This document shows positions 13,915 to 43,811 of a DNA stretch of 64,000 nt, piece by piece. The stretch is taken from NCBI RefSeq assembly GCF_028858535.1, contig NZ_JAPMOU010000004.1, positions 149,473 through 213,472 of the forward strand, given 5' to 3'. Source of the stretch: Spartinivicinus poritis. GTDB taxonomy: Bacteria; Pseudomonadota; Gammaproteobacteria; Pseudomonadales; Zooshikellaceae. A program made the position numbers and the translations under genes. How positions within the stretch are numbered: position 1 is the first letter of the stretch; each line of letters starts with the position of its first letter. The notes under the pieces were generated by a model, which was given only the letters and a program-made list of their open reading frames with translations, had not been told where the DNA came from and did not search any database.

Positions 13915-14664
13915 TTAACGCCTGGCGCCTGCCAGCTCAATAAAACTACCAGAGCAGTATGAAGCTTGCTCAGATAACAGCCACATAATTGCATTGGCTA
14001 CTTCTTCAGCAGTACCACCCCGTTTCATCGGAATAACTTCTTTTAATCGGTCAACACGACCTGGTTCACCACCACTGGCGTGGATATCAGTATAAATCAT
14101 CCCTGGCCTAACAGCGTTCACCCTTATACCTTCAGCAGCCACCTCTTTAGCCAAACCTATCGTCAAGCTATCAATAGCCCCTTTAGAGGCTGCATAATCA
14201 ACATATTCATTAGCCCCACCAATAAATGAGGCGGTAGAGGATACATTGACTATTGCCCCACCCTGCCCCCCATGCTGAGTAGACATTTGCAGGATCGCTT
14301 CACGAGCACAAAGCATACTACCAATAACATTTATATTAAAAATACGTTGCCAACGCTCAACTGACATGTGTTCAAATTTAGTTTGTTGATCAAGTACACC
14401 CGCATTATTAACTAAGCCAGTAACAGGACCTAGCTCTCTTTCCGTTAGTTCAAATAAATGCTTAACCTCTGTCTCCTTACTCACATCGGCAGCAACAGCA
14501 ATAGCCTTACCGCCCGCAGCCTGAATTGCGCTGACTACTTTTTCAGCAGCAGTGTGGTCTTTGTGATAGTTAACACAAACAGCATAACCCTGCTCAGCAG
14601 CCAGTAATGCCGTAGCCGCACCAATACCACGACTTGCTCCAGTAATAATAATTACCTTTTCCAT
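13915..14664 (-). CDS. SDR family oxidoreductase
   Basis: TGASRGIG Rossmann motif, NNAG, and YxxxK (YAASKGA). Confidence 0.85.
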   Translation of the reverse strand: MEKVIIITGASRGIGAATALLAAEQGYAVCVNYHKDHTAAEKVVSAIQAAGGKAIAVAADVSKETEVKHLFELTERELGPVTGLVNNAGVLDQQTKFEHMSVERWQRIFNINVIGSMLCAREAILQMSTQHGGQGGAIVNVSSTASFIGGANEYVDYAASKGAIDSLTIGLAKEVAAEGIRVNAVRPGMIYTDIHASGGEPGRVDRLKEVIPMKRGGTAEEVANAIMWLLSEQASYCSGSFIELAGARR

Positions 14665-14764
14665 TGGTATTCTCCAGGTTATAATTTAACTATTGCAAAT
14701 AGTAACGAGTTTGCTTTGTTAGGTAAATAGCGTTTACCTATAGCAGGGTAGGTTTTAAAAACAA

Positions 14765-15163
14765 ATGCAGTTATTTTTAATTATCTTGAGTATTTTATTC
14801 CTGCCTTTATTTTTGATTGCATTAACAAATAAAAAGATAGCAACAAACGCTATCTTTTTAGTAGTATTTTTTGCAATTATTATGTTTAGCTTAGGCAGCT
14901 GGAACTCCTTTCTTAATGGGTTAGCTTTTATTCTTCTTATTATAATAGTTGGATACCGATGTTTAGAAGCCTTTGTCGGGTTATCCATAGTAACTAAAAA
15001 AATTTTAAGTGTATGGACCGACCCTGAAAATAAAGTGGATTCAATAGTCAACAAAAAAACCCTTAAATTAATTGTTGGCCCCATCCTTATTTTTGTTATA
15101 GTGGCCATTACAGCTGCGGCTATTATACTGCTCAACCCAAAGCTAGCTGAGCTGTTCATCTAG
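14765..15163 (+). CDS. small integral membrane protein (hypothetical)
   Basis: 132-aa ORF with 4 predicted hydrophobic helices. The alternative antisense ORF 14755-15159(-) is less protein-like. No SD was identified. Confidence 0.35.
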   Translation: MQLFLIILSILFLPLFLIALTNKKIATNAIFLVVFFAIIMFSLGSWNSFLNGLAFILLIIIVGYRCLEAFVGLSIVTKKILSVWTDPENKVDSIVNKKTLKLIVGPILIFVIVAITAAAIILLNPKLAELFI

Positions 15164-15309
15164 CAAAAATGAAAAGCCTAATCCTCTACCTGCAGACTGT
15201 CGCCAAAAACTACAGGACATATACATCAAACCATTTCAAGATGAAACTAGAAGAACTATTAACAAACAAAGACTAAAAACATTCGCGCCAGTGGTTCCCT
15301 TAGTCAAAT

Positions 15310-16074
15310 TTACTTTTTATATAGTCCTCTTCGAGCGTTTTCAAAATAGGTATCATATTTACCACTAGCTTTCAACTTTTTAAGGCCAGTATTAAACAAC
15401 TTTATTATTTTTTCATTCTGTTTGACTTTTTTACTTAAAATTAAGTGATAGGTTGTAGTATTATATGGTCGAGGATGATGCGTCACATTCTTTACTTCAT
15501 CTTCAGAAAAGTTACTATATAAAATAGCATAGCCTGCATCTAAATCAGATGGCAGTATATCAACTCTTCTATTCAATAACATTTTAAATATGGCTATTTC
15601 AGAATAAGCTCTTTCAATCTTAATATCTTTGTTTGATTCAAATTGGTATTTATAACCAATCACACCACCCACTTTTACACTGACAAAATCTGAGTAGTCT
15701 TTCCAATCAAAGGGCATAGACTTCAAGTGAAATAGTACTGACCTTCCATGAATGATAATATCACTGAAGAAAAACTCCTTTTCACGATCAGGGTCAAGAC
15801 TCCAGATAAGGGAGCCATCGAATCGCCCTTCTTTTGCTTCAATATAAGCCCTTTTCCATGGCATAAAAACATAGTCTACTTTAACATCCACACTCCTAAA
15901 TGCCTCTGTCACTATGTGAGAAGCAACACCATAATGCTTAAGATTTTCCGACTGATAGGGAAGCCACTCTCCATTAGTCAAACGAACAGTTAACTGATTA
16001 GTTGCATATACAAAATTAGAGACTAGCAAGAGAAAGCCTAAAAGTAGGTACATATCAGCAACCCTATAAACCAT
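15310..16074 (-). CDS. periplasmic solute-binding (family 3-like) domain protein, orphan paralog
   Basis: Signal peptide. The W.RAYIEA / G.FDG segment is shared with the 4362-, 44149- and 51199- paralogs. Confidence 0.65.
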   Translation of the reverse strand: MVYRVADMYLLLGFLLLVSNFVYATNQLTVRLTNGEWLPYQSENLKHYGVASHIVTEAFRSVDVKVDYVFMPWKRAYIEAKEGRFDGSLIWSLDPDREKEFFFSDIIIHGRSVLFHLKSMPFDWKDYSDFVSVKVGGVIGYKYQFESNKDIKIERAYSEIAIFKMLLNRRVDILPSDLDAGYAILYSNFSEDEVKNVTHHPRPYNTTTYHLILSKKVKQNEKIIKLFNTGLKKLKASGKYDTYFENARRGLYKK

Positions 16075-22085: not shown

Positions 22086-23564
22086 ATGAATTCCAATCAA
22101 GACAAAGTTTGTGACTTAGCTATATTTGGTGCTCAAGGAGACCTGGCACTCCGAAAGCTATTTCCTTCTCTGTTTCAGCTGGATAAAGCAGGCCTGCTGG
22201 ATGCAGAAACACGCATGATCGGGCTGGCTCGCGATCATGTCGACCAACCGGGCTTTAAAGAAAATGTTACAGAACACCTGAAAAAATACATTCCAGCAGA
22301 CGAGCTTGATAACGAAGTACTACAACGTTTTTGTAGTCGGCTTCAATATATCAAGCTGGATTTTGCCACAGAAGAAGGCTATGACCAGCTGGTTGCCACC
22401 CGAGCAAAGGTAAAGCATCGCTTGATATGTTATTTTGCCACACCAGCCTCCGTTTATGGCCCCATTTGTGAAAACTTGTCTAAGCACCAGCTAATAGACA
22501 GCAAAACTCGTGTAGTACTAGAAAAGCCTATTGGTTACGACCTAGCCTCATCTTGCGAAATTAACGATCAAGTGGCTAAGTATTTTGATGAATGCCAAAT
22601 CTATCGTATTGACCACTATTTAGGGAAAGAAACTGTTCAAAACCTTATCGCGTTAAGGTTTGCCAATAATTTGTTTGGCTCACAGTGGGATTTAAATCAT
22701 ATCGATCACATTGAAATCACTGTAGCTGAAAAAGTGGGTATTGAAGGCCGCTGGGGGTATTTTGACAAAGCAGGACAACTGCGAGATATGGTCCAAAATC
22801 ACCTTCTGCAATTACTCTGTTTAATTGCAATGGATCCACCCAGTGACTTATCAGCAGACAGTATCCGTGATGAAAAAGTAAAAGTACTCAAGGCACTACA
22901 GCCTATTACACCAGAGCTATTGACGACACATGTAGTACGTGGCCAATACGGCGCTGGTACTATTGACGGCAAACCAGTACCTGGCTATTTAGAAGAAGAG
23001 AATGCCAAATCCAGCAGTAGTACTGAGTCGTTTGTTTCACTAAAAGTAATGATCAACAACTGGCGTTGGGCCAATGTCCCCTTTTACCTTAGAACAGGTA
23101 AACGGATGCCTGAAAAACTGTCGCAAATCATTATCCACTTTAAACAACAACCTCATTATATTTTTGCACCCGAGCAGCGGAGCATTGCCAGCAATAAATT
23201 AATTATCCGCCTCCAGCCTGACGAAGGTATTTCACTACAGGTGATGACTAAAGACCAAGGCTTGGATAAAGGTATGCGGTTAAGAGCTGGGCCTTTACAA
23301 TTAAGTTTTTCCGACACATTCCACGCCGATCGAATCCCTGATGCTTATGAGCGTCTGCTGTTAGAGCTGATGAAAGGCAATCAATATCTGTTTGTCCGGC
23401 GTGATGAAGTGGAATACGCCTGGCGTTGGTGTGATCGAATTATTCAGGGCTGGGAAGACCAAAATACCCGCCCACAAAAATATCCTGCAGGCTCCTGGGG
23501 GCCGGTTTCTTCAATTGCAATGATTACTCGAGACGGGAGATCCTGGTATGAAGACTCAGCTTAA
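22086..23564 (+). CDS. zwf: glucose-6-phosphate 1-dehydrogenase
   Basis: 492 aa. N-terminal NADP-binding region ([21 protein letters not shown]). The G6PD signature region RIDHYLGKE is present. Confidence 0.95.
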
Positions 23565-24276
23565 TCAGCTAGAAGCGTTGTTAAATAACAAACTGGCTAA
23601 TTTTGATAATGCTGATCAGCTAACAACTGCCCTAGCCACGGATATTACCAAACAACTAACTAAAGCTATTGCAGAAAAAGGGCATGCCACTCTGATTTTA
23701 TCTGGAGGACGCACCCCTATTCCATTATTTAAGCAATTGGCCAATACGGACATTGAATGGGAAAAAGTTTATATCACGCTAGCCGACGAGCGTTGGGTAA
23801 ATCCTGATGATGAAGCGAGCAATGAACGATTAATCCGCCAACACCTATTACAACAGCATGCCGCTAAAGCTAGTTTTACCGGTTTAAAAAATCACCATGA
23901 TTTAGCTACAGCAGGCGAAACTGAATGTAACAATCTATTAGGCAAATTACCTTACCCATTTGATGTGGTAGTGCTGGGAATGGGCAATGACGGGCATACC
24001 GCTTCTTTATTTCCAGAATCTACACGCCTGGCAGAGGGGTTAGATCCCAATAACCCTAACCACTGCCTTGCTATCACCCCAATGCACGCTCCCCATGAGC
24101 GAATGAGTTTAACCTTTGCCTCATTAAAACAAGCCAAACAGATTATTTTACATCTTTGCGGAACAGATAAATTAAATACCTTACAAACTGCCTGTGAGGA
24201 TGGACCCATAGAAGACATGCCAATCAGAGCATTTCTCCGCAGCCAGTTGCCATTGACAGTCTATTGGAGTCCATAG
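23548..24276 (+). CDS. pgl: 6-phosphogluconolactonase
   Basis: 242 aa. Overlaps the zwf stop by 17 nt. LSGGRTP motif of the glucosamine-6-P isomerase / 6PGL family. Confidence 0.9.
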
Positions 24277-24301
24277 TTAGGGATTAAAGGTTTTAAGAAA
24301 T

Positions 24302-24955
24302 ATGACAACACAACTGCCAACGTCTATCACCAGCCAAATTGACCACATTTGTAGTCAGTCTCTGATAATGCCTGTTATTACAATTAATTCTGCTGAACAG
24401 GCATTACCTTTAGCAGAGGCATTATTAGCAGGCGGTATCAATGTATTAGAAATCACCTTACGTTCTGAATATGGCTTAACTGCCATTGCTGAGCTAAGAA
24501 AAAAACTACCAGAAGCCTGGATTGGAGCAGGCACAGTCACCAATCGCGAGCTATTAAAACAAGCGCAAGAGGCAGGCGCACAATTTATAGTAACGCCAGG
24601 CAGCACTGATGATTTATTAGCAGCCGGCGTAACAGCTAATATCCCACTATTACCAGGTATTGCTACTGGCTCCGAATTAATGATGGGGCTGGAAAAAGGC
24701 TATCAACGGTTCAAATTCTTCCCTGCCGCCATAAACGGAGGAACAGCAGCACTAAAAGCATTTTCAGGCCCATTTGGCCAGGTAAAATTCTGCCCAACCG
24801 GCGGAATCAATTTAGACAATGCCGCTGAGTACTTAGCCTTAAATAATGTGATCTGTATAGGCGGTAGCTGGGTAGTATCTAAAGACGCCATCGAAAATAG
24901 CGATTGGAAAAAAATCACTACTATAACCAAAGAAAGTATTGAGCAGTTGGCTTAA
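24302..24955 (+). CDS. eda: KDPG / KHG aldolase
   Basis: 217 aa. Typical Eda fold motifs (PVITIN...LEITLRS; the Schiff-base Lys region GQVKFCPTGGI). Confidence 0.9.
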   Translation: MTTQLPTSITSQIDHICSQSLIMPVITINSAEQALPLAEALLAGGINVLEITLRSEYGLTAIAELRKKLPEAWIGAGTVTNRELLKQAQEAGAQFIVTPGSTDDLLAAGVTANIPLLPGIATGSELMMGLEKGYQRFKFFPAAINGGTAALKAFSGPFGQVKFCPTGGINLDNAAEYLALNNVICIGGSWVVSKDAIENSDWKKITTITKESIEQLA

Positions 24956-26390: not shown

Positions 26391-28160
26391 ATGCCTGGCC
26401 ATAATACCACTAACTTAAGTGTTCAACCTCTTCCCGAACCTATCAAGTCTTCCAGCCTTTTACTTAAAAGGCTGGAAGCTGCGAGTACTCCGGTATCTTA
26501 TCGCCTGGATATTTTACTTATTGTATTCGGTTTTCTGTCACAAGAAGCAAGACATGAAAATATTAAATATTTAAATAAACTGAACGCTGACTCAGACATT
26601 GGCCACTACTTAATAAGTAAAAATATTATAACAGAAAGAGAGTTTCAGCGTGTTTTAGCTTATAAATTAGGTATGCCTTTTGTGTCACTTATAGATTTAG
26701 AATTTGACCTAAATATTATAAATCTTTTACCTGAAGAAGTCGCTAGAGACCATACTGTATTGCCAGTATTAGATCTTGGAGAAAAACTAGTCATAGCAAT
26801 GACGTTGCCACTAAAAAGCCAAACTATAAAATATTTAAGTTTTTTAACCAATTTTGTTATTGAGCCTGTAATTGCAGAGAGAAAAGATATTGAGTTCGCA
26901 ATAGCAAGACTATACGGGACCAGTAGTGAACTTGAAGCATTAGAAGAGTTTAAAAGCAACTACCATGAAGGAAACAAGCTAACTAGCAAAGACAACCTAT
27001 TACTTGGCCAAAAAAAGCCTATTGTAAAACTTGTTCATAATATGATTCTTGATGCTATTGGTAGCAAGGCCTCCGACATACATTTGAGACCTTGTGAAAA
27101 CGGGATAGATTTATTATTTAGAATTGATGGTAGCTTAATTAAAATACGAACATTTACTAAAGGGCTACTAGCCCCCATCATAAGCAGGTTAAAAGTCATG
27201 TCAGGAATGGACCTTGCTGCACACCATTTACCACAGGATGGACAGGCTTATTTAAAAAAAGGTGATCGGCAAATTGACTTACGGTTTTCAGTTATACCTA
27301 CTATTTATGGAGAAAGCGCAGTTATAAGAATTCTTGATGCAAAGTATGGCATGAAGAATTTATCTGGTATTGGTTTCTCAGAAAAAGACTTAACCTTATT
27401 TACTAATTTATTACACCGATCAAATGGTATTATTCTAGTGACAGGACCTACTGGCTCCGGAAAATCAACAACCCTTTATGCCGCTTTACAAGAAATAAAA
27501 ATGCGTAATGTTAATGTTGTTACCGTAGAAGATCCGGTTGAATATCATATTGACGGTCTTGTACAAATACAAGTCAACCACTCGATTGGCTACACTTTTT
27601 CAAGGGCATTAAGGCATATTCTAAGACATGACCCTGATGTGCTTATGGTAGGTGAGATAAGAGATTTAGAGACAGCACAAATGGCTATTGAATGTAGCCT
27701 TACAGGACATATAGTACTCTCTACGTTACATACTAATAGTGCAGCAACAACTATAGCACGTTTACTAGAAATTGGTATTGATCCTTATCTTGTAAATACT
27801 TCCTTGTTAGGTGTTTTAGCCCAGCGGCTTGTTCGTTGTAACTGTAAACATTGCTTAGTGGAAGAAAAAGTAAGGGCTGGTGTTCACTCTTCTCTGGGTT
27901 TGAAAGATGAAGAAACTTTTTATCGAGGTAAAGGTTGCGACCACTGCCGTAACACAGGTTATTCAGGCCGGCATGCCGTTTATGAGTTACTGATTATGAG
28001 CAATGAAATTCGTCAAGCAACTATTAATGGTAGTGGTGCTGAGCTTATTAAAAATGCAGCTATAAAAGAAGGTATGACACCGCTCACACAACAAGCACTT
28101 AGCTTGGCTCGTAATAAACTAACATCGTTAGAAGAAGTATATCGAACCATTTTAGATTAA
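26391..28160 (+). CDS. GspE/PilB-family type II secretion / type IV pilus assembly ATPase, orphan
   Basis: 589 aa. N-terminal T2SSE_N-like domain. Walker A VTGPTGSGKSTT, Asp box, His box and the tetracysteine motif (C..C...C..C: CNCKHC...CDHCRNTG). No other secretion or pilus genes nearby. Confidence 0.85.
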   Translation: MPGHNTTNLSVQPLPEPIKSSSLLLKRLEAASTPVSYRLDILLIVFGFLSQEARHENIKYLNKLNADSDIGHYLISKNIITEREFQRVLAYKLGMPFVSLIDLEFDLNIINLLPEEVARDHTVLPVLDLGEKLVIAMTLPLKSQTIKYLSFLTNFVIEPVIAERKDIEFAIARLYGTSSELEALEEFKSNYHEGNKLTSKDNLLLGQKKPIVKLVHNMILDAIGSKASDIHLRPCENGIDLLFRIDGSLIKIRTFTKGLLAPIISRLKVMSGMDLAAHHLPQDGQAYLKKGDRQIDLRFSVIPTIYGESAVIRILDAKYGMKNLSGIGFSEKDLTLFTNLLHRSNGIILVTGPTGSGKSTTLYAALQEIKMRNVNVVTVEDPVEYHIDGLVQIQVNHSIGYTFSRALRHILRHDPDVLMVGEIRDLETAQMAIECSLTGHIVLSTLHTNSAATTIARLLEIGIDPYLVNTSLLGVLAQRLVRCNCKHCLVEEKVRAGVHSSLGLKDEETFYRGKGCDHCRNTGYSGRHAVYELLIMSNEIRQATINGSGAELIKNAAIKEGMTPLTQQALSLARNKLTSLEEVYRTILD

Positions 28161-28524: not shown

Positions 28525-30147
28525 CTATGATCTAACCTGATTAAAGCTCAAACCAAACTTAGACAAATAAATCCGTAAACGATGACTATCATTATTAGAT
28601 GCTTTTTGCGTTCGAGAATAATTAAACAATTCCCTTCCTGCCGCCGATAACGACGATTGCTGCTGGCAAATAGAAATCACCTGCTGTAGTTGTAACTGAT
28701 CAAACAAATCAATTGAAGCTAATTGTTCTTCACTAAAATAATGTGCTAAGTCTACACCAAAATGATTAACTTTGGGCTGATCGGTTTGCCAGTGCTTGGA
28801 TAACCGTTCTACTTCTTCACTGACAATGATTTCATTAATTCGTCCTCCTTCTGCTAACGTTAACATCCTTTGTACGCTGGCATTTAAGTCACGAAAATTG
28901 CCTCGCCAACTGGCCTGTGAAGATGTAGCAAAAGCTAGGTATTGCTGCTTTGCCTGTTGATTAAAACTGGCTTTATGGGCTGTTTTTCGCTCATGCTCCT
29001 GTAGCTCATAATTCAAGTTTGGCTCAATATCTTCTTTTCGTTGAGCTAAACCAGGCAGCTGATAAGTCCATAAGTTGATACGAGCTAATAAGTCATCACG
29101 AAATACCCCTTCTTCAACTGCCTGATATAGATCTTTATTGGTGCCAGCTATTTGTTGAAAATCACTTTGGACAGGCTTATCACTACCTAATGGGTAGAAT
29201 GTTTTTTCCTCAATAGCATGTAGTAGCATAGCTTGTTCATCTAGCCCAAGCTCACCAATTTCATCAAGAAATAACAACCCTTGGTTTGCTGCTAATAATA
29301 AACCATCCCGCTTATTTTGAGCTCCAGTAAATGCCCCTTTAATATGACCAAATAATGCTGACATAGCATTATCACCTTTTAAGGTTGCACAGTTAACTGC
29401 AATAAAATCACCAGCAACCAAGCCTTTTTGTTGTTTTAGCTGATAAATTCGTTTTGCCAGCATTGATTTACCTGCTCCAGTTGGCCCAGTAATTAACATG
29501 GGTGCCGTACTCCGAACAGCGACTTTCTCGATCTGCTCGATCATTTGGTTAAACGCTTTATTTTTAGTTTGAATGCCACTTTTTAAGAAAGACTGGTCAT
29601 CTAAAGCTTCTTTTTGAAAACGCTGCGCTAAGGCATCATATTTAGATAAATCCAGATCAATAACGGAGTAAGTACCAATCGCATTACCTTCTTCGTCTTT
29701 TACTCCTGGAGAAGACTGCAATAAACGGGCAGGTATATAGTTAGCTTCACACAATAAAAACCAACAAATCTGCGCTACATGGGTCCCAGTGGTGATGTGC
29801 AAATAGTAGTCTTCCTTTTCAGGCTTAAACGGGTAAGACTGACAGAACTCCAATAGCACACTATAAACTTCTTCAAAATCCCAAGGGTCGATAAAGCGAA
29901 CTGAATGCAAATTGTAAGCTGTATGATTAGACACCTCCTGCACATCTTCACACACCTTAGTTGCCAAGTTTTTATCCCTTGGTTGATGCAGCAACTCTAA
30001 ACGATCTAGCTTAAGATCCTTTTGCTGAAAAATACTAACGGTTGGCCGCCAGCTACTCCAACGCTTAGTCCCTTTACCTCGACGATCCTTAGTCGTACCC
30101 AGCAAACCAATGGCAACCTTAGTTTTGTTTGTTTTTTCACTCGTCAC
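28525..30147 (-). CDS. rtcR: sigma-54-dependent transcriptional regulator RtcR (N-terminal CARF domain, AAA+ sigma-54 activator, C-terminal HTH)
   Basis: 540 aa. Collinear strong similarity to E. coli RtcR as recalled from memory, not searched (VAIGLLGTT, WSSWRPTVSIFQQ, DRLELLH, WDFEEVY, HITTGTHVAQICWFLL, MIEQIEKVA). Walker A LITGPTGAGKS. GAFTGA sigma-54 contact motif. Confidence 0.9.
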   Translation of the reverse strand: MTSEKTNKTKVAIGLLGTTKDRRGKGTKRWSSWRPTVSIFQQKDLKLDRLELLHQPRDKNLATKVCEDVQEVSNHTAYNLHSVRFIDPWDFEEVYSVLLEFCQSYPFKPEKEDYYLHITTGTHVAQICWFLLCEANYIPARLLQSSPGVKDEEGNAIGTYSVIDLDLSKYDALAQRFQKEALDDQSFLKSGIQTKNKAFNQMIEQIEKVAVRSTAPMLITGPTGAGKSMLAKRIYQLKQQKGLVAGDFIAVNCATLKGDNAMSALFGHIKGAFTGAQNKRDGLLLAANQGLLFLDEIGELGLDEQAMLLHAIEEKTFYPLGSDKPVQSDFQQIAGTNKDLYQAVEEGVFRDDLLARINLWTYQLPGLAQRKEDIEPNLNYELQEHERKTAHKASFNQQAKQQYLAFATSSQASWRGNFRDLNASVQRMLTLAEGGRINEIIVSEEVERLSKHWQTDQPKVNHFGVDLAHYFSEEQLASIDLFDQLQLQQVISICQQQSSLSAAGRELFNYSRTQKASNNDSHRLRIYLSKFGLSFNQVRS

Positions 30148-30366
30148 ACCAACCTCACCTTATTACATTGCATACAAATGCTGCTACTCGGCCCTACCAA
30201 TTAACCGCTAACATACATATTATTTATATAGATCAATATTATATCCATATAGATATTTCAACAACAAAACTTCAGCGACAGCAATTCATGCTGGCCTCTC
30301 AGGTGATTCTTGCTATACCTTGAATATCAAGGCCTCCAACACTTTTAACAAAGAAATTTTAAAAGT

Positions 30367-30382
30367 TGGCACGTTAATCGCC
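30367..30382 (+). promoter_or_regulatory. candidate sigma-54 (-24/-12) promoter divergent from rtcR
   Basis: TTGGCACGTTAATCGCC. It has an exact TGGCACG -24 element and GG-N10-GC spacing, with -12 TCGC (one mismatch to TTGC). Orientation reads rightward into the tRNA-like RNA region, mirroring the rtcR/rtcBA divergent arrangement. Confidence 0.4.
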
Positions 30383-30607
30383 TTATGATTACTGTGCAAA
30401 GCGGAATGCTTTAGCAGGTCTGGTTTTTTGCTTCAAACCAAAGCCAGCCTGGTAACTCTTGTTTCAAGTAAGTTGTACCAAAGCGTCCCAAGACACAGTG
30501 CCCTTTCTCGGCATGGATTCGTAAGAATCTTATTGGGTTTTTTATGATATGGCATACAACTGGGTTCGAGTCCCTAAAAACCACCATTCATACTGGCTTT
30601 TAACCAG

Positions 30608-30680
30608 TGCTTGATAGCTCATTTGGTAGAGCAGTTGCTTAGGGAGCAATTGGTAGAAGGTTCGATTCCTTCTCAAGCTG
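30608..30680 (+). tRNA. tRNA-like element / atypical tRNA (anticodon AGG, U1.U72 mismatch), possibly a Y-RNA-like tRNA mimic or pseudo-tRNA
   Basis: Folds into a full cloverleaf by hand. Acceptor is 6 bp plus a U.U pair. U8-A9 present. D-arm GCTC/ATTTGGTA/GAGC with G18G19. Anticodon arm GTTGC/TTAGGGA/GCAAT (U33, anticodon AGG, R37). 5-nt variable loop. T-arm GAAGG/TTCGATT/CCTTC. No encoded CCA. The body resembles tRNA-Lys but the anticodon loop is altered. AGG is not a normal bacterial anticodon. Confidence 0.5.
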
Positions 30681-30720
30681 TATAAATGTAAAAAGACTAC
30701 GCAAGTAGTCTGCAATGAAA

Positions 30721-30849
30721 TATACCCAAAGCGAAGGGTTTTTAGGTGAGGCTATCGAGTGATGAAGCCCCGTGAGCCTATAAATAATAGGTGATTGGGG
30801 TGAGTCACGATGATAACAAAGCCTAAAAGCGATTCGCGAAAGGTATAAA
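30721..30849 (+). repeat. MITE-like structured repeat, copy 2 (internally deleted, direct orientation relative to copy 1)
   Basis: TATACCCAAAGCGAAGGGTTTTTAGG ... GAGCCTATAAATAATAGGTGATTGGGGTGAG ... GATAACAAAGCCTAAAAGCGATTCGCGAAAGGTATAA matches both ends of copy 1. Confidence 0.75.
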
Positions 30850-31231
30850 AGAGGTTAGCGGTTGTTGCCGCTGTTTAGCTTAATTAAATAACAGCATTAA
30901 ATTTATCAAAACTTAAAGTGAATGCAGGAAGCAATTACTTAAGGAATGGTGACTTTAATGAGGTAGCTAAAGCTGTACTAGTAGTTACCAGTTATTTAAT
31001 TATTTGGTTCGTTATTGAATCATTCCTTACAGGGTTACATTCTGTGGATCAACCACATACGATGTACAAATGTAAGCGAACCATTCTTTAACCACCACTA
31101 TTCAAGTAACCGCCCCTAACTTCTTTAGTTATGATGAGTCGCTTTTTAGTAGTTAATCAACTACTGACCAGTACTCATCATGACTAATAAGTCCTATTTT
31201 TAAGGGCATTTAGATTTAATGGAGATGTATT

Positions 31232-32770
31232 GTGTTTAAGAAAATAGTTGTCGGGCAAAATGAGCGACTAATTGTTGTTAAAGATAAAAGATTAAGTAAA
31301 GTTCTATCGACAGGAGTACATTATCTGCCTATTTGGCAATATGATGATGTAGAATTGGTTAGTACTGAGTCAGTACGCTTCACTCATGACAGCCTAGAAC
31401 AGTGGCTAAAAGAGCCTGTATTTTTACAATATTTTGATAAACTAGAGTTAGGCCGATTTGAAGTTGGGTTAGTTTATAAACATGGTCAGCTTTGGCAGTT
31501 ATTAAACCCGGCGACTACCCACTATTTGTGGAAAAATAGTGATGATATTGAGGTGCGTACCATCAATACCGAAAATAGTTATTATCTTGAAGATGATCTA
31601 TTATGGCAATTAACAAACAAAGAGCAGTTTGTTATTAATGCTAATACCAGTAATGTTACTACCCATAAAGTTAATGCAGGATTCGTTGCTTTAATCTATG
31701 TGGACAGCCAACTTATCGATTTGCAAGGTGAAGGTGAGTTTGGAGTATGGCAGTATCAGCGCAAAATTGAAGTAGTCATGATGGATACCCGCAAAGGGTT
31801 AAAACTTGATTATATATTGCAGGAAAACTGGTTAGAAATTCCTGCTGTTGCAGAACAAATTGCGCTATTTAAAACTGAACCACAGCAAGTTGGGCTACTG
31901 TATGAAGTACAGCATGGCCAGCGTCGTTTTAATCAATTACTGCCACCAAATACTGAAATTGCTGTATGGCAACAGAATAAAGTGTGGGAGCTTGATCTGG
32001 TTGATATCAACAACGACTTTCGGGTAACCAAACCATTGCTAGATAGCTTACGTCAGTATTTAAGTGGCCAGTGGTTAACAACCTCTATCGACCAACAGCA
32101 TATCGGTTTGCTACTGCAAGATGGTCAATTGGTTAGCACCCTGAATACTGGGCTACACGCTTATTGGCCTTTTGGTCGCCAACTGGAAATAAAACAGTTT
32201 GATTTACGCTGGCAAACAGTGGAAGTCAGTGGACAAGAAATATTAACCAAAGATCGGGTTAGTGTGCGGGTCAACCTAAACGCCAACTATCGTATTTTAG
32301 ATGCGGTAACGACTTTTGAAAGCGTTAACAATGTTAATGAGTTTATTTACCGTACGTTACAGCTAGCATTACGAGAAGCCATAGGTACACGAAACTTAGA
32401 TGATTTGTTAATGGATAAAGAGCATGTAAATCAGCTATTGCTAAAGCAATCAGCGGAGCATTTATCATCTATTGGGATAGAGCTTGGTCAACTGGGAATA
32501 AAAGACATTATTTTACCTGGTGAGATGAAGGAAATTCTTAACCAGGTGGTTAATGCCCAAAAATCAGCAGAAGCTAACAGCATCAAGCGTCGGGAAGAAA
32601 CAGCTGCTACTCGTAGCCTGCAAAACACCGCCAAAGTTATGGAAGGCAACCCAACTTTGCTGCGCTTGAAAGAACTGGAGTCATTGGAGAAAGTAGCAGA
32701 AAAAATTGACCAATTAAATGTATATGGAGGATTAGAACAAGTAATGAATGGCTTAGTTAAGCTAAAGTAA
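31232..32770 (+). CDS. SPFH/Band 7 (stomatin/prohibitin-like) domain protein
   Basis: 512 aa. N-terminus VVGQNERLIVVKDKRL is typical of the SPFH beta-start. The C-terminal region carries an SPFH core and coiled-coil (ILPGEMKEILNQVVNAQKSAEA...). No NfeD partner adjacent. Confidence 0.75.
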   Translation: MFKKIVVGQNERLIVVKDKRLSKVLSTGVHYLPIWQYDDVELVSTESVRFTHDSLEQWLKEPVFLQYFDKLELGRFEVGLVYKHGQLWQLLNPATTHYLWKNSDDIEVRTINTENSYYLEDDLLWQLTNKEQFVINANTSNVTTHKVNAGFVALIYVDSQLIDLQGEGEFGVWQYQRKIEVVMMDTRKGLKLDYILQENWLEIPAVAEQIALFKTEPQQVGLLYEVQHGQRRFNQLLPPNTEIAVWQQNKVWELDLVDINNDFRVTKPLLDSLRQYLSGQWLTTSIDQQHIGLLLQDGQLVSTLNTGLHAYWPFGRQLEIKQFDLRWQTVEVSGQEILTKDRVSVRVNLNANYRILDAVTTFESVNNVNEFIYRTLQLALREAIGTRNLDDLLMDKEHVNQLLLKQSAEHLSSIGIELGQLGIKDIILPGEMKEILNQVVNAQKSAEANSIKRREETAATRSLQNTAKVMEGNPTLLRLKELESLEKVAEKIDQLNVYGGLEQVMNGLVKLK

Positions 32771-32806
32771 ACGTTGTGGTGCATATAGATGCACCACAAC
32801 GTTTTT
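32771..32806. terminator. bidirectional hairpin terminator between the convergent SPFH and 438-aa genes
   Basis: Perfect 14-bp stem ACGTTGTGGTGCAT-ATAG-ATGCACCACAACGT followed by TTTTT. An A-tract lies on the other side. Confidence 0.65.
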
Positions 32807-32832: not shown

Positions 32833-34149
32833 TTAATTACTTTCCCAATTGAATACTGTGCCGTCACTAAAATGAATCATCACTGTATTAGGCTTCACTA
32901 CTTTTTTGTTTAATAAATAATCTTTACTGCTAAAATTGGCGGTAATCGTGGAGCCATCACTAAAGGTTGTTTGTTGTACTTGTCGACTTTTAGTTAAGTC
33001 AAGAAATTTCACTAAAGCCTTATCCCAAAGTTTTTCATGAGCTATCTGAAATCCTTTCGCATAGTGTTTTAAAGCAGGCAACCGCTTTCGTAAGCTATTA
33101 CGACTAATATGCAACATTGGCGGTGTGTTATATAACATCGCGGTTAAATCACGTACCACTTTCACATCGGAAAATTTTAAACTGTCTGCCCCCCAATGGT
33201 AGCCATTAATAACAGCATCATGAAACACGGCCTGATATAACGGCAGTTTATACTCGGGCGCAAACAATAAATTTTTATAAAGCATTTTGACTTGAGCTGG
33301 CTTAAAGAAAACCTGCGGCTCGTCATTTGGCCACCAAGTACCAAGATAATATGGTGATTGTTTATTTTTACGCATGTCTGGATCACGCCAACCAAAACCT
33401 GTAGTTTGAATTCCATGAGCAAATACTATTGACGACGTATTAATTGCATTACCATCTTCAGAGCCTAATGGTAGTTGATATTGATCCACAAACCACTGCA
33501 AGCGATAATTAAATCCTTTTGCCATGGTAGACTGGGAGTGTAAACGTTTAGAATGGTAATCCTCATAAAGCATTCCAGTGGCATCAGCGTCCAAAAATAA
33601 ACTATTAAAACCACCATAGTGCATGATTTTAGCAGTACGTTGCTGATAGTAAGTTTGCATACAACTTGGATTGGTATATACTCCTTTTCCTTTATAGCCC
33701 ATTTTTTTATATCCATCTTTCTTAACAATGCCACAGTTTTCCCGTAACTGGCTAGGTATCTGAGCAGTCAGCCAATTATCATTTACCCCCATCGGTATTG
33801 CTGTATTATACGAATCATAGGTGCTTATTAAGTAGCCAGCCTGTTTTGCCGCTATGACAGCCTCTGGATGATAAAAAGCTGAGGTCCAACTGGGTGTCAG
33901 TAATAATAATTTATTCAATTTGGCTGTTTGAAAATCCTCTATGACAGGTTTGGATAATCCCTGTCCCCAATTGACTACTGGCTTTAAAAAAACTCCCAAT
34001 CTTGCTTTCACTATTTTTTTTCTTTTTTTTGCTACCAGGTACTGCTGATCAATAAAATCTCTTTTATCCGGATCAGAAGAGACTGGTAATACTTTTGTGA
34101 ACGCATGATTAAGCATTTCAATCACTTTACGCTGGTGATAGTGATTCAT
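32833..34149 (-). CDS. hypothetical protein (large, possibly carbohydrate-active/TIM-barrel-like)
   Basis: 438-aa ORF with good coding statistics. No confidently recognised motifs; the carbohydrate-enzyme idea is tentative. Confidence 0.55.
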   Translation of the reverse strand: MNHYHQRKVIEMLNHAFTKVLPVSSDPDKRDFIDQQYLVAKKRKKIVKARLGVFLKPVVNWGQGLSKPVIEDFQTAKLNKLLLLTPSWTSAFYHPEAVIAAKQAGYLISTYDSYNTAIPMGVNDNWLTAQIPSQLRENCGIVKKDGYKKMGYKGKGVYTNPSCMQTYYQQRTAKIMHYGGFNSLFLDADATGMLYEDYHSKRLHSQSTMAKGFNYRLQWFVDQYQLPLGSEDGNAINTSSIVFAHGIQTTGFGWRDPDMRKNKQSPYYLGTWWPNDEPQVFFKPAQVKMLYKNLLFAPEYKLPLYQAVFHDAVINGYHWGADSLKFSDVKVVRDLTAMLYNTPPMLHISRNSLRKRLPALKHYAKGFQIAHEKLWDKALVKFLDLTKSRQVQQTTFSDGSTITANFSSKDYLLNKKVVKPNTVMIHFSDGTVFNWESN

Positions 34150-38277: not shown

Positions 38278-39240
38278 TCAGGAAATATAACTATTATTAA
38301 GTGCCGCAGCCGCTCCCACTAACCCAGGATATTCACTTAATACTAAATAAGTAGGTATTTTTTCTGCGTAGCTTTGTAACCGCCCTTTATTTTCAAATGA
38401 TTGCCTAAATTGACTCGCAGCAAAAAAATCTTTAAAGCGTGGAATAATACCACCCATTATGTAAACGCCCCCTTCTGCTCCCAAGATAAGCGCTGCATTA
38501 CCTGCAGCAGCACCCAACAAATTACAGAAATGGGCTAGTACTTGATGCTCTATTGAGTTTTCATCACTTAATGCTATGGATGATATATCAGCTGCTGACT
38601 GCTGCTTAACAGGTACTTTGTTTAATTGGCAATGGGCTTCATATAAATCCACCAAGCCGGCACCACATAGCAGTCTTTCAACTGATACGCGTGGATACTT
38701 TTTTAAGAAAAATTCCAGAACATCCATTTCAAAGCGATTGCGGGGGGCAAAATCCACATGGCCGCCTTCGCCGGATAATGCTAACCAACCACTGCTGGTT
38801 GAAGCTAATCCTGCCATACCTAGCCCTGTGCCCGGACCAATCACCAATTTAGTTTTATTTGCAACAGCTTCACCGCCGCCTATTTGCATTAATTCATCGT
38901 TAGTTAAATAAGGTACTGATAAGGCAAGTGCCGTAAAATCATTAATTACCTTAAATGAATCAAAACCAAATTGCTGCTGCACAGCTGACTGTGAAAAATC
39001 CCAATGGTTATTGGTCATTTTAATTCGGTCTTGATGAATAGGACAAGCAAAGGATAAACAAGCTTGTTTGACATCGGGATTGCCCACCAATGCTAAATAA
39101 TCAGCTAACGCATCTGGCATATTGTTATAGTCTGCGCAGGGCAGCACTTCGATTAACTCAGGCTGCACACCCCCATCTAATACCATGGCAAACCGGGCGT
39201 TTGTGCCCCCAATATCACCAACGACAATTGGTTGGTTCAT
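38278..39240 (-). CDS. glk: glucokinase
   Basis: 320 aa. N-terminus [15 protein letters not shown] matches the Glk ATP-binding motif. Overlaps the edd stop by 4 nt. Confidence 0.9.
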
Positions 39241-41066
39241 TTAACTTCCTCATTCGCAAAACCAAACACTGAAGCACCCTGTTCAGCACCACCGGCAAAC
39301 GCTCGCATTTGACCGAACAGCTCTCGGCCCATGCCTTGGTGAGAGTTGGATAAATCCACCTCAACTGCTGTACGCTGCAGCCATTCTTGATCATCGACTA
39401 ATGCAGTCAACTCTCCGGTTTCTGCATTTAAACGTATAACATCGCCTTCCCGCAGTTTGGCAATTGGTCCACCTTGGGCAGCTTCAGGATACACATGAAT
39501 AGCTGCCGGCACTTTACCAGAAGCACCTGACATTCGGCCATCAGTAACTAATGCGACTTTAAATCCCTTATCTTGCAATACACCCAAATAAGGCGTCAGT
39601 TTATGTAGTTCTGGCATGCCAATCGCCTGTGGCCCTTGAAAGCGCACCACAGCAATAAAGTCTCTTTCCAGTTCTCCGCGTTTAAAGGCTTCAGCTAAAT
39701 CATTTTGATCATGGAAAATTACCACGGGGGCTTCAACTATTTGATTATCCTTAGCGACGGCCGACACTTTGATCACACCACGGCCTATATTGCCATTTAA
39801 TAGTTTTAAACCACCTTCCGGGCTAAATGGATTTGCTGCAGGTCTTAGTACCTCCGCATCATGAGTTTCCTCCACTCCATCTCGCCACACTAACTTATCC
39901 CCATCCAAGAAAGGTTCTTGCGTGTATTGACGAAGCCCTTTGCCAACTACAGTTGTGACATCATCATGAAGCAAGCCACTATCTAACAATTCACGTATTA
40001 AAAAAGCCATCCCCCCAGCTGCCTGAAAATGATTAATATCTGCCTGACCATTGGGATATATCTTGGTTAATAAAGGCACCACCGAAGAGAGTTCTGAAAA
40101 ATCATCCCAGGTTATGTTTACCCCTGCTGCTGCTGCCATCGCAACTAAATGCATGGTGTGGTTAGTTGAGCCACCAGTCGCCAGCAATGCCACCACAGCA
40201 TTGATAATCGTCTTTTCAGATACCACCTGATACATTGGTGTAAAATCACTACCTAATGCAGTAATTCGAGCCGCTTGTCGAGTCGCTTCTTTTGTCAGCT
40301 CATCACGTAGCGGAGTATTAGGATTAATAAAGGATGCTCCTGGCAAGTGTAAGCCCATCACTTCAACTAGCAGCTGGTTACTATTAGCTGTTCCGTAGAA
40401 GGTACAAGTGCCTGGGCCATGGTAAGACTGAGATTCCGCTTCAAGTAATTCTTCTCTACCGACTTTACCTTCAGCAAACAATTGGCGAATTCGAGCTTTT
40501 TCCTTATTTGGCAAACCTGATGGCATTGGGCCTGCTGGTACAAATATCACAGGTAAATGACCAAAGCGTAAGGCACCTATAAATAAGCCAGGCACAATCT
40601 TGTCGCATACCCCCAGGCACAGAGCTGCATCAAACATATTGTGGGAAAGGGCTACTGCAGTAGCCATTGCAATCACATCACGACTGAATAGGCTTAGCTC
40701 CATACCCGGCTGGCCTTGAGTCACCCCATCACACATCGCCGGTACCCCACCAGCAAACTGAGCCACCGAACCAACATCATGGGCAGCTTGTTTAATTAGC
40801 TCAGGAAATACCTCCAAAGGCTGGTGTGCAGACAACATGTCGTTATATGACGAAATAATCCCTATATTGGCCTGATTCATCATCTTAAGTGCCTGCTTGT
40901 CTCCACCAGAACAGGCAGCAAAGCCGTGGGCTAAATTACCACAAGACAATACCCCTCGATGAGGGCCCTTTTGCTCCGCATGCTTCATCGCTTGCAGGTA
41001 GGCTTGCCGAGAGCGACGACTTCTCTCGATAACCCTACGGGTTACGTTATCTACTACTGGGTGCAT
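39237..41066 (-). CDS. edd: phosphogluconate dehydratase (Entner-Doudoroff)
   Basis: 609 aa. ILVD/EDD family motifs: CDGVTQG, the Fe-S Cys ligands and C-terminal GRMSGASG. Adjacent to glk and zwf-pgl-eda. Confidence 0.95.
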
Positions 41067-41327
41067 GGGGCCTCCTCATCTTTTTTCCCGAAGCATAGGA
41101 TATGGGCTTTCGTTCCTAGCAAATATTGTAATATTACATAACTTTTTAAATTTATTTCAGCATTCCAGCTTGTTAACTGGAATTTTTATTTGTAATATTA
41201 CCAAACAAACAGAATAAGAGTCTTCTTTTTATTTTCTCATAAATTTGGCAAGAGTCGCCTGTTATGTGAACGTTTATTTAAAAAGTACATGGTAATGTGG
41301 CTTGTATCAGCTTGTTAGGAGGTTTAA

Positions 41328-42332
41328 ATGACCATTCGTGTTGCCATTAATGGTTATGGTCGTATCGGTCGTAATATCTTGCGTGCTCTGTACGAAAATG
41401 GCTATCGAGACCGAATCCAAGTCGTTGCAATTAATGATTTAGGCGATGCAGAAATCAATGCCCACCTAACCCGTTTTGACAGCGTTCATGGTCGCTTTGC
41501 TGGTGAAGTAAAAACAGCAGGCAACGCTATGCAGGTTAATGGTGATACCATTCGTATCAGCTCAGAGCGTGACCCAGCCAAGTTGGATTGGAGCTCATTA
41601 AATGTTGATGTGGTTTATGAGTGCACAGGCCTGTTTACCAGTAGAGAAAAAGCCGCCGCTCACCTACAAGCAGGTGCCAAAAAAGTCATTATCTCTGCAC
41701 CAGGTAAAGATGTAGATGCCACCATCGTATATGGTGTTAATCACGACATATTACGCCAGTCTCATCAAATTATTTCCAGTGCATCTTGCACTACAAACTG
41801 TTTAGCGCCTGTAGCCAAAGCATTAAATGACAAAATTGGGATTGAGTCAGGCCTGATGACCACTATTCATGCCTATACCAATGACCAAAATTTATCTGAT
41901 GTCTATCACTCAGATATGTACCGTGCACGTTCCGCGACTCAATCTATGATTCCAACCAAAACCGGTGCTGCCGCAGCCGTTGGGTTAGTGTTGCCTGAAC
42001 TTAATGGCAAACTGGATGGACAAGCCGTGCGGGTACCCACCATTAATGTTTCACTTGTCGATTTGAACTTTGTTGCCAGCCGTGCCACCTCTATTGAAGA
42101 GGTTAACAGCATAATGAAAGCAGCAAGCGAAGCTTCAACTATTCTGGATTATAACGATATTAAATTGGTGTCTATCGACTTTAATCACAGCACAGCCTCA
42201 GCCACTTTCGACTCTACCCAAACTCGGGTAAACGGCCAGCTGGTAAAAGTAATGGCTTGGTACGACAACGAGTGGGGCTTCTCTAATCGAATGCTCGATA
42301 ACACCTTAGCTTTAATTAATGCACCTGCATAA
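41328..42332 (+). CDS. gap: glyceraldehyde-3-phosphate dehydrogenase
   Basis: 334 aa. N-terminus [12 protein letters not shown]. Catalytic region [11 protein letters not shown]. Confidence 0.9.
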
Positions 42333-42362
42333 ATTAGACGATAGCCTGTAGAAGATTACCTG

Positions 42363-43811
42363 ATGATTCGCAGAACTAAAATTGTAGCAACCCTTGGTCC
42401 TTCCTCTAGCGAGATTGAAACGTTAGAACAGATGATCGCAGCTGGGGTCAATGTTGTTCGTTTAAACTTCTCCCATGGAGAAGCCCAGGACCACATTGAA
42501 CGCGCCCAGCGGGTTCGTGAGGCGGCTGCCCGTCAACAAGCGTTTGTTGCAATTTTAGGTGATTTGCAAGGGCCAAAAATTCGTATTTCTCGTTTTAAAA
42601 ACAAAAAAATAGAATTAAAAAATGACGATACTTTTATCTTAGATGCCAAGTTAGATAAAGAAGCAGGCACTGAAGAACGAGTTGGTATTGAATACAAAGC
42701 ATTAGTCGCCGACTCAAAACCTGGTGATATTTTATTATTAGACGACGGCCGTATTGAGCTTGAAGTAACAGGTGTTACCGCTCACGAAGTCATCACCAAA
42801 GTCATTATTGGTGGTCCATTATCTAATAACAAAGGTATTAATCGCCAAGGTGGCGGCTTATCAGCAAAAGCTTTAACTGAAAAAGATAAGCAAGATATTA
42901 AAACGGCAGCAAAAATTGGCGTCGATTATGTAGCGGTTTCCTTTCCACGCTCTGCTGAAGATATGGAAGAAGCGCGACAGCTTCTTAAAGAAGCAGGCTC
43001 AAGCGCTGGCTTAATTGCCAAAATTGAAAGAGCTGAAGCAGTAAATGACGATGAAATTTTAGATGGTATTATTAAATCATCTGAAGGGGTAATGGTTGCC
43101 CGTGGTGATTTAGGTGTTGAAATTGGTAATGCCCAATTGGTTGCCGTGCAAAAGCATATTATTGAACGTGCTCGCACCTTAAATAAAATTGCGATTACAG
43201 CGACTCAAATGATGGAGTCAATGATCAGCAACCCTATGCCAACTCGGGCCGAAGTATCTGATGTAGCCAATGCTGTTTTAGATGGCACCGATGCTGTCAT
43301 GCTTTCAGCAGAAACGGCAGCAGGGTTGTATCCAGTACAAACTATAGAAGCAGTACATAATGTGTGTGTTGGCGCTGAAAAACATCCTTTAGCGTTTCGA
43401 TCTAAACACCGTATCGACGAGCCTTTTCAGCGCACAGATGAATCAATAGCATTGGCAGCTATGTATATTGCCAATCATTTGCAAGGTGTTAAAGCAATTA
43501 TTGCAATGACCGAAAGTGGGGCTACTCCATTACTGATGTCCCGCATCCGCTCGCATTTGCCTATTTTTGCTTTTTCACGCCGCAAGGACACCCAAAACCG
43601 GGTTGCTCTCTATCGAGGGGTCATTACCGTACCTTTTGATACGGATGAAATTGACAACGCTCAAGTGAATCAGTGCTCTATTGATAAACTAAAAGCACTG
43701 GATGTTGTTAATGAAGGTGACCTGGTAATTATCACCAAGGGCGATTATGCCAACGCCCAAGGTGGCACCAACACCATGAAAGTGGTTAAGGTGGGTAACA
43801 AAATTCTTTAA
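42363..43811 (+). CDS. pyk: pyruvate kinase
   Basis: 482 aa. N-terminus [15 protein letters not shown] signature region ([11 protein letters not shown]). Confidence 0.9.

Follow-up and report, generated by a model that had tools for sequence, protein, structure and literature searches.

What does RtcR control at a locus where the divergent transcript does not begin with the RNA ligase and cyclase genes rtcB and rtcA? This question is raised by the 64-kb stretch of Spartinivicinus poritis DNA analyzed here (hereinafter the window), in which an intact rtcR gene faces a tRNA-like RNA and, further downstream, a gene for a Band-7/SPFH protein. The locus is a reduced member of the predicted RNA-repair module that combines a band-7-associated tRNA-like RNA (b7a-tRNA) with a Band-7 protein, and does not constitute a new class of system.

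RtcR and the predicted divergent sigma-54 promoter

The rtcR gene (28525-30147, minus strand) encodes a sigma-54-dependent activator of 540 aa, the N-terminal part of which is a CARF-like RtcR domain. The assignment of this protein to RtcR in the first-pass annotation of the sequence is corroborated by Pfam, where the RtcR domain (PF06956, 5e-79) is aligned over the complete profile (1-183 of 183) and is accompanied by the sigma-54-interaction AAA+ domain (Sigma54_activat, PF00158, 4e-49), by the NCBIfam equivalog RNA_repair_RtcR (NF038308; 802 bits with the cutoff at 650, covering positions 2-528 of 530), and by the presence of both the GAFTGA and the Walker A (GPTGAGKS) motifs. The ligand of RtcR in Salmonella, which is bound by the CARF-like domain, consists of tRNA 5' fragments ending in 2',3'-cyclic phosphate (PMC7790460).

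Divergently from rtcR, a sigma-54 -24/-12 element of the form TGGCAC-N5-TCGC (TGGCACGTTAATCGC) is located at 30367-30381 on the plus strand, and transcription is predicted to start from it at about 30392-30394. This element is the sole match to TGGCACN5TYGC in the window, a count that by itself amounts to weak evidence because shuffled sequence contains 0.23 matches on average and at least one match in 20 of 100 shuffles. The position of the motif is more informative: of the 30 intergenic regions between divergent rtcR and Band-7 genes of other organisms, 21 contain an equivalent sigma-54 motif at a distance of 129-170 nt from the start of rtcR. A sigma-54 promoter at this place, already proposed in the first pass, is thus borne out as a motif, and the motif together with its conserved position suggests that RtcR activates divergent transcription at this locus as well. 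The -12 element of the predicted promoter reads TCGC, not TTGC, which counts against the explanation favored below.

The tRNA-like RNA and the structured regions around it

As pointed out previously, the first recognizable product on the divergent side is not rtcBA but a near-perfect tRNA cloverleaf. This b7a-tRNA (30608-30680, plus strand) is 73 nt long and forms a full cloverleaf that is detected by ARAGORN, by Rfam and in the family alignment described below; ARAGORN reports it as tRNA-Pro(AGG), with no other tRNA called in the window, and the Rfam tRNA model matches it with 59.4 bits (E 2.5e-10). The RNA is, nevertheless, neither a decoding tRNA nor a Y RNA. The high score of the tRNA model and the 7-nt anticodon loop UUAGGGA, with U33 and a purine at position 37, are what an ordinary decoding tRNA-Pro(AGG) transcribed from its own promoter would display, but this identity appears extremely improbable in view of the U1-U72 mismatch, G73 and the lack of an encoded CCA (UAU comes next). 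Furthermore, the body of the molecule resembles tRNA-Lys rather than tRNA-Pro (among the E. coli tRNAs, the best matches are the tRNA-Lys genes, with 80% identity over positions 4-63), a nearly identical body is combined with UUU, GAG, CAU or a 6-nt loop at the syntenic position of relatives, and no sigma-70-like promoter was detected. An A34 in a proline anticodon is, in addition, atypical of bacteria. The comparison with Y RNAs, for which an Rfam run had been proposed as a check, is not upheld either: within 30150-31300, no Y RNA match was obtained at the gathering threshold or at E-values up to 10, the tRNA match being the only one, and no TROVE/Rsr domain was identified by Pfam among the 20 open reading frames of the window that were scanned, so that the Y RNA identity is rejected.

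Between the predicted transcription start and the cloverleaf lies a structured 5' leader (30393-30607, plus strand), delineated by sequence inspection and folding; the fold of 30393-30900 yields z = -4.9 relative to shuffles. The leader contains a hairpin closed by a GUAA loop at 30515-30530, the sequence GGG-UUCGAGU-CCC at 30562-30574, which resembles a degenerate T arm, and, directly adjoining the tRNA-like RNA, a further hairpin at 30593-30607. In addition, GAAUG at 30404-30408 can pair with CAUUC at 30585-30589, although this helix of only 5 bp is absent from the minimum-free-energy fold. The leaders of the Hahella and Gynuella loci are bracketed by the same GAAUGU...ACAUUC motifs, and in other lineages these two positions are occupied by different but complementary sequences. 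This pattern of a closing helix was recognized by eye, from blocks of 7-11 nt that are complementary and occur at fixed positions; the corresponding RNAduplex z-scores, which come from folding whole 40-nt segments and are poorly suited to the detection of such blocks, are non-significant.

On the 3' side, the tRNA-like RNA is followed by a 7-bp GCAA-tetraloop hairpin, AGACUAC-GCAA-GUAGUCU (30694-30711, plus strand), in agreement with the GNRA hairpin recorded previously; it has no U-run after it. Tetraloop hairpins occupy the equivalent position in several of the surveyed loci (L002-L005, with UUCG, UCCG and GCAA loops, and L008, with a GCAA loop). The long spacer, or 5' UTR, that comes next (30712-31231, plus strand) was characterized by folding and by a scan for terminator-like structures. 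Folding predicts a long, irregular hairpin in it at about 30722-30850; a second hairpin, at 30856-30873, is weakly terminator-like, and its tail, TTTAGCTT, is a poor U-run. A covariance model of the 3' RNA domain of the Hahella group (R1) matched only its own training sequences and, at a borderline level, L036 (E 0.28); it found no match in the window, even with filters off, so that homology of 30712-31231 to that domain is unsupported.

The Band-7 gene

The gene that probably completes the unit is absent from the first-pass annotation. It encodes a soluble Band-7/SPFH protein ("slipin") of 512 aa (31232-32770, plus strand; Pfam Band_7, 4e-35) and starts 551 nt 3' of the tRNA-like RNA, on the same strand, with a GTG codon that is preceded by GGAG 7 nt upstream. 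The protein consists of two N-terminal beta-rich repeats (approximately residues 1-135 and 140-275), a stomatin-like SPFH domain (approximately 282-430) and a long C-terminal helix. It shares the SPFH domain with the membrane proteins of the stomatin and HflKC types but lacks their N-terminal membrane anchor: the highest Kyte-Doolittle mean over 19 residues is only 1.02, and a beta-strand is modeled from residue 2. Its scores with the NCBIfam HflK and HflC equivalogs are far under the respective cutoffs. The homologues P0002 and P0003 are 90% and 96% identical to it. A 16-bp palindromic hairpin with flanking T and A runs (32769-32804) is predicted to be a strong bidirectional terminator that closes the operon; beyond it lies a convergent GH129 gene (32833-34149, minus strand).

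The gap between the tRNA-like RNA and the Band-7 start includes a 350-nt AT-rich stretch in addition to the weak terminator-like hairpin; because these two intervene, it is conceivable that the Band-7 gene is transcribed from a promoter of its own or that the RNA is the main product. No sigma-70-like promoter was detected on the plus strand between the RNA and the Band-7 gene.

Conservation of the module

A survey of 92 Band-7 loci, of which the 69 with at least 900 nt of upstream sequence were considered informative, shows how regularly the two components occur together. In 47 of the 69, ARAGORN identified a same-strand tRNA within 1.3 kb upstream of the Band-7 gene, and the Rfam tRNA model added four more, so that a tRNA-like element accompanies Band-7 in 51 of the 69 informative loci (about 74%); the spacers between the element and the gene are 200-800 nt long across the related loci. 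In an alignment of 46 elements, namely the one from the window and 45 others linked to Band-7, the D and T arms are invariant, 92.9% of the stem cells are paired, and the covariation score is 0.674, with slid controls reaching at most 0.13. The anticodon, as inferred, differs between elements (CAU, GAU, UUU, GAA, AGG and others), with some loops of 5-6 nt, the 1:72 pair is broken in 32 of the 46 elements, and most family members have no encoded CCA. Two or three elements in tandem are found at some loci (L017, L025 and L030).

In the relatives, the operon runs on into rtcB, rtcA or rlaP, or rtcBA adjoins rtcR. The order of genes divergent from rtcR is, in P. luteoviolacea, the tRNA-like element, Band7, RtcB, RtcA and RlaP, in Shewanella algae, three tRNA-like elements, Band7, RtcB and RtcA, and in V. 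quintilis, the tRNA-like element, Band7, a gene for a 171-aa protein, RtcB and RlaP. In Hahella and Gynuella, the tRNA-like element, Band7 and RlaP are on one side, in this order, and rtcR, rtcB and rtcA on the other. A search of 2.9 million viral contigs yielded a single related locus; a phage origin is accordingly rejected, and the module appears to be essentially cellular.

The window differs from these relatives in its lack of repair genes. No match to RtcB, RtcA or RlaP was found in it by tblastn at an E-value of 1e-5, and this result, together with the Pfam scan, bears out for the window the initial observation that no rtcB, rtcA or rsr follows. When RtcB was searched for with a Hahella query, none of the best 120 matches listed (all at least 71% identical, many of them nameless) carried the name Spartinivicinus.

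Functional interpretation

The most likely explanation of these findings, to which a probability of roughly 80% can be assigned, is that RtcR drives a single unit of leader, tRNA-like RNA and Band-7 that acts in the response to tRNA damage. By analogy with Salmonella, binding of tRNA 5' fragments with 2',3'-cyclic phosphate ends to the CARF-like domain would activate RtcR, and the active regulator would open the promoter at 30367-30381. Transcription would proceed rightward through a highly structured leader with a tRNA-Lys-derived cloverleaf whose anticodon loop is non-cognate and whose acceptor end is frayed, continue into the gene for the soluble SPFH protein, and stop at the terminator around 32800. 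The tRNA-like part would then be cut out or exposed by tRNA-processing enzymes, and the RNA and an oligomeric Band-7 scaffold could form a ribonucleoprotein cofactor in the tRNA-damage response, which may hand broken tRNAs over to repair enzymes whose genes lie elsewhere or, alternatively, may soak up or report anticodon nucleases. Promoter use, cotranscription with Band-7 and RNA processing are all predicted here from sequence features.

The principal alternatives concern the extent and the fate of the transcript. The first-pass annotation proposed a minimal or rewired Rtc module with a non-coding tRNA mimic as its regulated output. The minimal aspect of this proposal fits the window, in which no gene for a ligase, cyclase or nucleotidyltransferase was found; a purely non-coding output does not, given that a Band-7 gene on the same strand follows the RNA and is probably part of the unit. 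For the RNA to be the sole regulated product, transcription would have to end before a separately expressed Band-7 gene, as the terminator-like hairpin with its weak T-tail and the 551-nt gap might indicate; yet the U-run of this hairpin is poor, no promoter for separate expression was detected in the gap, and same-strand pairing over comparable spacers prevails among the informative loci, which makes such an output unlikely. [quoted passage not shown] The strongly structured context of the element, the apparent pairing, in several lineages, of the 5' end of the leader with the bases right before the tRNA-like RNA, and the prevalence of broken 1:72 pairs and missing CCA in the family are all compatible with this scenario, whereas the tandem arrays look more like the substrates of tRNA-precursor processing, and the D/T elbow that is recognized by processing enzymes is invariant; on balance, a purely cis-acting role has a small but appreciable chance of being correct.

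The absence of repair genes from the window also could mean that the locus is a decaying remnant, in which rtcBA and rlaP were deleted and the leftover RNA and Band-7 gene are non-functional. That the operon of relatives contains or adjoins rtcB, rtcA or rlaP is in line with such a loss. Decay is, however, very unlikely considering that RtcR and Band-7 are full-length and intact, that the cloverleaf is near-perfect, that a Band-7 homologue with 90% identity and a like length (508 aa) is encoded in another genome, and that stand-alone pairs of a tRNA-like element and Band-7, with neither RtcB nor RtcR within 5 kb, are found repeatedly in other lineages (among them Competibacter loci L018-L020 as well as L023, L026, L040, L069, L085, L086 and L095).

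A more far-reaching version of the preferred, RtcR-driven unit can be put forward only as a speculation with a low likelihood. The RNA and the soluble protein with its repeats, SPFH domain and helix might assemble, on induction by RtcR, into a vault-like ribonucleoprotein that is self-sufficient and does not depend on an adjoining ligase; the tRNA-Lys-derived cloverleaf, whose acceptor end is frayed and whose anticodon loop differs from lineage to lineage, might be a decoy or sentinel for anticodon nucleases, and fragments cleaved from it could feed back on the CARF domain of RtcR; and the leader of about 200 nt and the downstream hairpins might be functional parts of a larger, undescribed non-coding RNA.

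For the b7a-tRNA/Band-7 pair, a role as an RNA-repair cofactor is predicted, and a locus where RtcR apparently drives only the RNA and Band-7, and where genes for a ligase, cyclase and nucleotidyltransferase are missing in cis, offers a clean genetic setting in which the role of the pair alone can be addressed, along with the question of whether RtcR senses damage to it. The invariant D/T elbow, the freely varying anticodon, the habitually broken 1:72 pair and, in this clade, the tRNA-Lys-like body suggest specific hypotheses on how the RNA is recognized.

Relationship to known systems

The arrangement was initially thought to be undescribed, but Burroughs and Aravind (NAR 2016) had already predicted a b7a-tRNA/Band-7 pair adjacent to RtcB, as outlined in a later preprint (bioRxiv 10.1101/312249), which treats the b7a-tRNA as lacking experimental validation as of 2018. 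In the literature searched, no later paper that uses the term b7a-tRNA was found. Going by that outline, the window and the published module have in common a non-coding RNA strongly resembling an authentic tRNA that is located directly upstream of, and co-oriented with, a Band-7 gene in an Rtc-type locus; expression of the RNA and its binding to Band-7 are predictions. The published pair adjoins RtcB, whereas the window has no rtcB, rtcA or rlaP within 64 kb, and its Band-7 protein is a long form with a duplicated N-terminal domain.

Other systems are similar in part. The E. coli rtcR-rtcBA locus has the RtcR equivalog and a divergent sigma-54 promoter, present in the window as a motif, but in the window this promoter faces the tRNA-like RNA and Band-7 rather than the ligase and the cyclase. 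The rsr-yrlBA-rtcBA locus of Salmonella (YrlA, YrlB, Rsr/Ro60) likewise has a divergent rtcR and a sigma-54 promoter, and in both cases a tRNA-mimicking non-coding RNA is encoded together with a putative scaffold protein; the window, however, has neither an Rsr/TROVE gene nor an Rfam Y RNA match, its RNA, unlike the Salmonella Y RNAs, retains a complete anticodon arm, and the partner is an SPFH protein, not Ro60. The eukaryotic vault particle (major vault protein and vault RNA) also is counted among the closest known systems. In cyanobacteria, long tRNA arrays are co-regulated with rtcB (PMC8421152, where Band-7 is unmentioned); here, too, extra tRNA genes are tied both to RtcB and to stress that affects translation or damages RNA, although the window contains a single non-canonical element and no array. 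Arrays of 10-23 tRNAs are located directly upstream of the genes in many metagenomic Band-7-RtcB loci.

A Band-7 Locus under Probable RtcR Control

The reverse-strand ORF at 28525-30147 encodes a 540-aa RtcR that matches PF06956 (RtcR, CARF-like) over its full length (5e-79) and the sigma-54 interaction domain (4e-49), scores 802 bits against the NCBIfam RtcR equivalog (cutoff 650), and carries the GAFTGA and Walker A motifs. On the opposite, forward strand, the sigma-54 -24/-12 pattern TGGCACN5TYGC has a single match in the 64-kb window (0.23 expected), TGGCACGTTAATCGC at 30367-30381, located 220 nt from the rtcR start; the motif lies 129-170 nt from the rtcR start in 21 of 30 divergent rtcR/Band-7 intergenic regions. 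The only tRNA detected by ARAGORN in the 64 kb, read as Pro(AGG), is found on the same strand at 30608-30680 (59.4 bits with the Rfam tRNA model, which marks a U1-U72 mismatch), with a 7-bp, GCAA-loop hairpin at 30694-30711 (forward strand; sequence and terminator-like scan). All four elements had been listed in the first-pass annotation and are present at the positions given there.

The proposal that the RNA is the sole output of this promoter is not supported, because the ORF that comes after it on that strand is a Band-7 gene (31232-32770, forward; SPFH/Band_7, 512 aa, Pfam 4e-35), with GGAG 7 nt upstream of its GTG start, and a simple scan detected no forward-strand sigma-70-like promoter from rtcR to this gene. 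The only terminator-like hairpin that the simple scan placed between the two genes is weak (30856-30873), and a 16-bp palindromic terminator follows the Band-7 stop codon, facing the convergent GH129 gene. [quoted passage not shown] Judged by its sequence, it is a gene-poor member of this known, predicted b7a-tRNA/Band-7 class under probable RtcR control. The abstract of a 2016 paper by Burroughs and Aravind reportedly pairs SPFH/Band-7 modules with "a novel tRNA-like molecule" as possible cofactors with a scaffolding role. The arrangement, taken in the first-pass annotation to be undescribed in standard rtc loci, is on record: according to Wang et al. [quoted passage not shown] Beyond that paper, no use of the term b7a-tRNA was found in the literature searched.

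The module is flanked by genes for an MshE-type ATPase (26391-28160) and GH129 (32833-34149) and lies among core carbohydrate metabolism genes (zwf, pgl and eda upstream, 22086-24955; edd and pyk downstream, 39237-43811); the GC content falls to about 31% at 34-38 kb.

The Band-7 protein is 100% identical to an S. poritis "slipin family protein". Its AlphaFold model (pLDDT 86.8) comprises two beta-rich N-terminal repeats, which are mutually related (local alignment z 6.9), an SPFH domain resembling that of stomatin and, C-terminally, a long helix; the protein has no hydrophobic anchor (the 19-residue Kyte-Doolittle mean peaks at 1.02). Short forms in relatives (about 380-400 aa) contain a single N-terminal repeat, and a free-standing copy of the repeat is encoded in Vibrio quintilis.

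The tRNA-Like RNA Family

The best matches of the window element in E. coli genomes are tRNA-Lys genes (80% identity over positions 4-63), so that a Pro anticodon is carried on a tRNA-Lys-like body, and no 3' CCA is encoded in the sequence. The mutual discordance of body, anticodon and acceptor end argues against a decoding role. In an alignment of 46 Band-7-proximal elements, 92.9% of the stem cells are paired, compared with 67% in shuffles, and the covariation score is 0.674 against at most 0.13 with slid partners; because the elements were picked by a tRNA finder, the cloverleaf is partly built in, whereas the compensatory changes, which occur at every acceptor-stem and anticodon-stem pair, are not. 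No variation is seen in the D arm (U8, GCUCA, G18, AGAGC) or the T arm (GGUUC.A..CC). The inferred anticodon is free to vary (most commonly CAU, but also GAU, UUU, GAA, AGG and others), and some anticodon loops are just 5-6 nt long. Non-standard pairs occur at 2:71 in 11 of the 46 members and at 1:72 in 32, so the U1-U72 mismatch of the window element is a family trait rather than decay.

Gene Order in Related Loci

In Hahella and Gynuella (L002-L005), RtcR is 63-65% identical to the window protein, and the divergent strand carries a tRNA-like element at a distance of about 300-370 nt from rtcR. Its body is near-identical in each, with anticodons UUU, GAG and CAU and one 6-nt loop; it is followed by genes for Band-7 and the nucleotidyltransferase RlaP. 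In these loci and in a related gammaproteobacterial MAG (L013), rtcB-rtcA lies downstream of rtcR on the same strand (about 12000-15400) and is not divergent; the MAG has rtcR-rtcB-rtcA without Band-7 or a tRNA-like element, and its rtcR match consists of two overlapping pieces, which may reflect a frameshift. Divergently from rtcR, Pseudoalteromonas luteoviolacea encodes the tRNA-like RNA, Band-7, RtcB, the cyclase RtcA and RlaP; Shewanella algae, three tandem tRNA-like RNAs, Band-7, RtcB and RtcA; and V. quintilis, the tRNA-like RNA, Band-7, a 171-aa protein, RtcB and RlaP. A second RNA-repair cassette, with one gene for an RNA_ligase (PF09414) and another for an HD/AAA_33 kinase-phosphatase-like protein, is found in V. 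quintilis (L021, 113-2027) a few kb from this operon.

Eighty metagenomic Band-7 loci were scanned as well, with annotation by tblastn and ARAGORN. Upstream sequence of 900 nt or more was available for 69 loci, 47 of which have a same-strand ARAGORN tRNA within 1.3 kb of Band-7; the Rfam tRNA model added four tRNA-like loci (L016, L027, L045, L097). In the metagenomic loci L034, L041, L048, L056, L057, L061, L062, L064, L070, L074, L083 and L100, arrays of 10-23 tRNA genes directly precede (b7a-tRNA)-Band-7-RtcB. Long tRNA arrays linked to rtcB are known from cyanobacteria, in a report that does not mention Band-7 (PMC8421152).

Leader and 3' Structures

The stretch 30393-30900 folds much more stably than its shuffles do (z -4.9). 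For the four Hahella/Gynuella loci, RNAalifold predicts 114 pairs, 34 with compensatory changes, including a helix of GAAUGU at the transcript 5' end with ACAUUC directly before the tRNA-like RNA and, 3' of the latter, a tetraloop hairpin and a large domain. In other lineages, the same two positions are occupied by complementary blocks of different sequence (CCAAGUCGC/GCGACUUGG, UCUGAUUA/UAAUCAGA, GUGAUG/CAUCAC, AUGUGAAA/UUUCACAU); a duplex-energy test of this pattern gave no significance, and the window counterpart (GAAUG, 30404-30408; CAUUC, 30585-30589) spans only 5 bp. Between the tetraloop hairpin and the start of Band-7, L002-L005 carry a structured domain about 190 nt long (about 9390-9600, reverse strand) with many compensatory pairs; it matched no Rfam family and was not found outside this group except for a borderline match in L036. 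A covariance model built on the Hahella 3' domain did not match the window.

A degenerate stand-alone T-arm-like motif, GGGUUCRAnUCCC, occurs near the tRNA-like RNA in several loci, on its 5' side in the window (30562-30574) and L016 and on its 3' side in L004, L005, L018 and L021. This variable placement suggests a decayed second tRNA-like unit; three full tandem units are present in Shewanella (L017, L025).

Possible Functions

In Salmonella, the activating ligand of RtcR is a tRNA 5' half with a 2',3'-cyclic phosphate end (PMC7790460). The same signal would switch on the window promoter, yielding a structured RNA that bears the b7a-tRNA, plus the Band-7 mRNA. The invariance of the D/T elbow points to binding of b7a-tRNA by tRNA-shape-recognising proteins; the free anticodon and frayed acceptor end point to an uncharged RNA. 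The proposal in the literature is that b7a-tRNA works with Band-7 in repair, as cofactor or scaffold; b7a-tRNA could instead serve tRNA nucleases as a decoy or sponge, as has been suggested for YrlA (PMC7790460) and for array tRNAs (PMC8421152). RlaP, present in relatives and absent from the 64-kb window, extends RNA 3' ends by one or two nucleotides (PMC12776372). In Candidatus Competibacter (L018-L020, about 3890-7150), where neither RtcR nor RtcB is encoded within 5 kb, a CCA-adding enzyme gene (PolyA_pol and HD) lies directly upstream of the tRNA-like RNA and Band-7, which hints that CCA may be added to the 3' end of the RNA.
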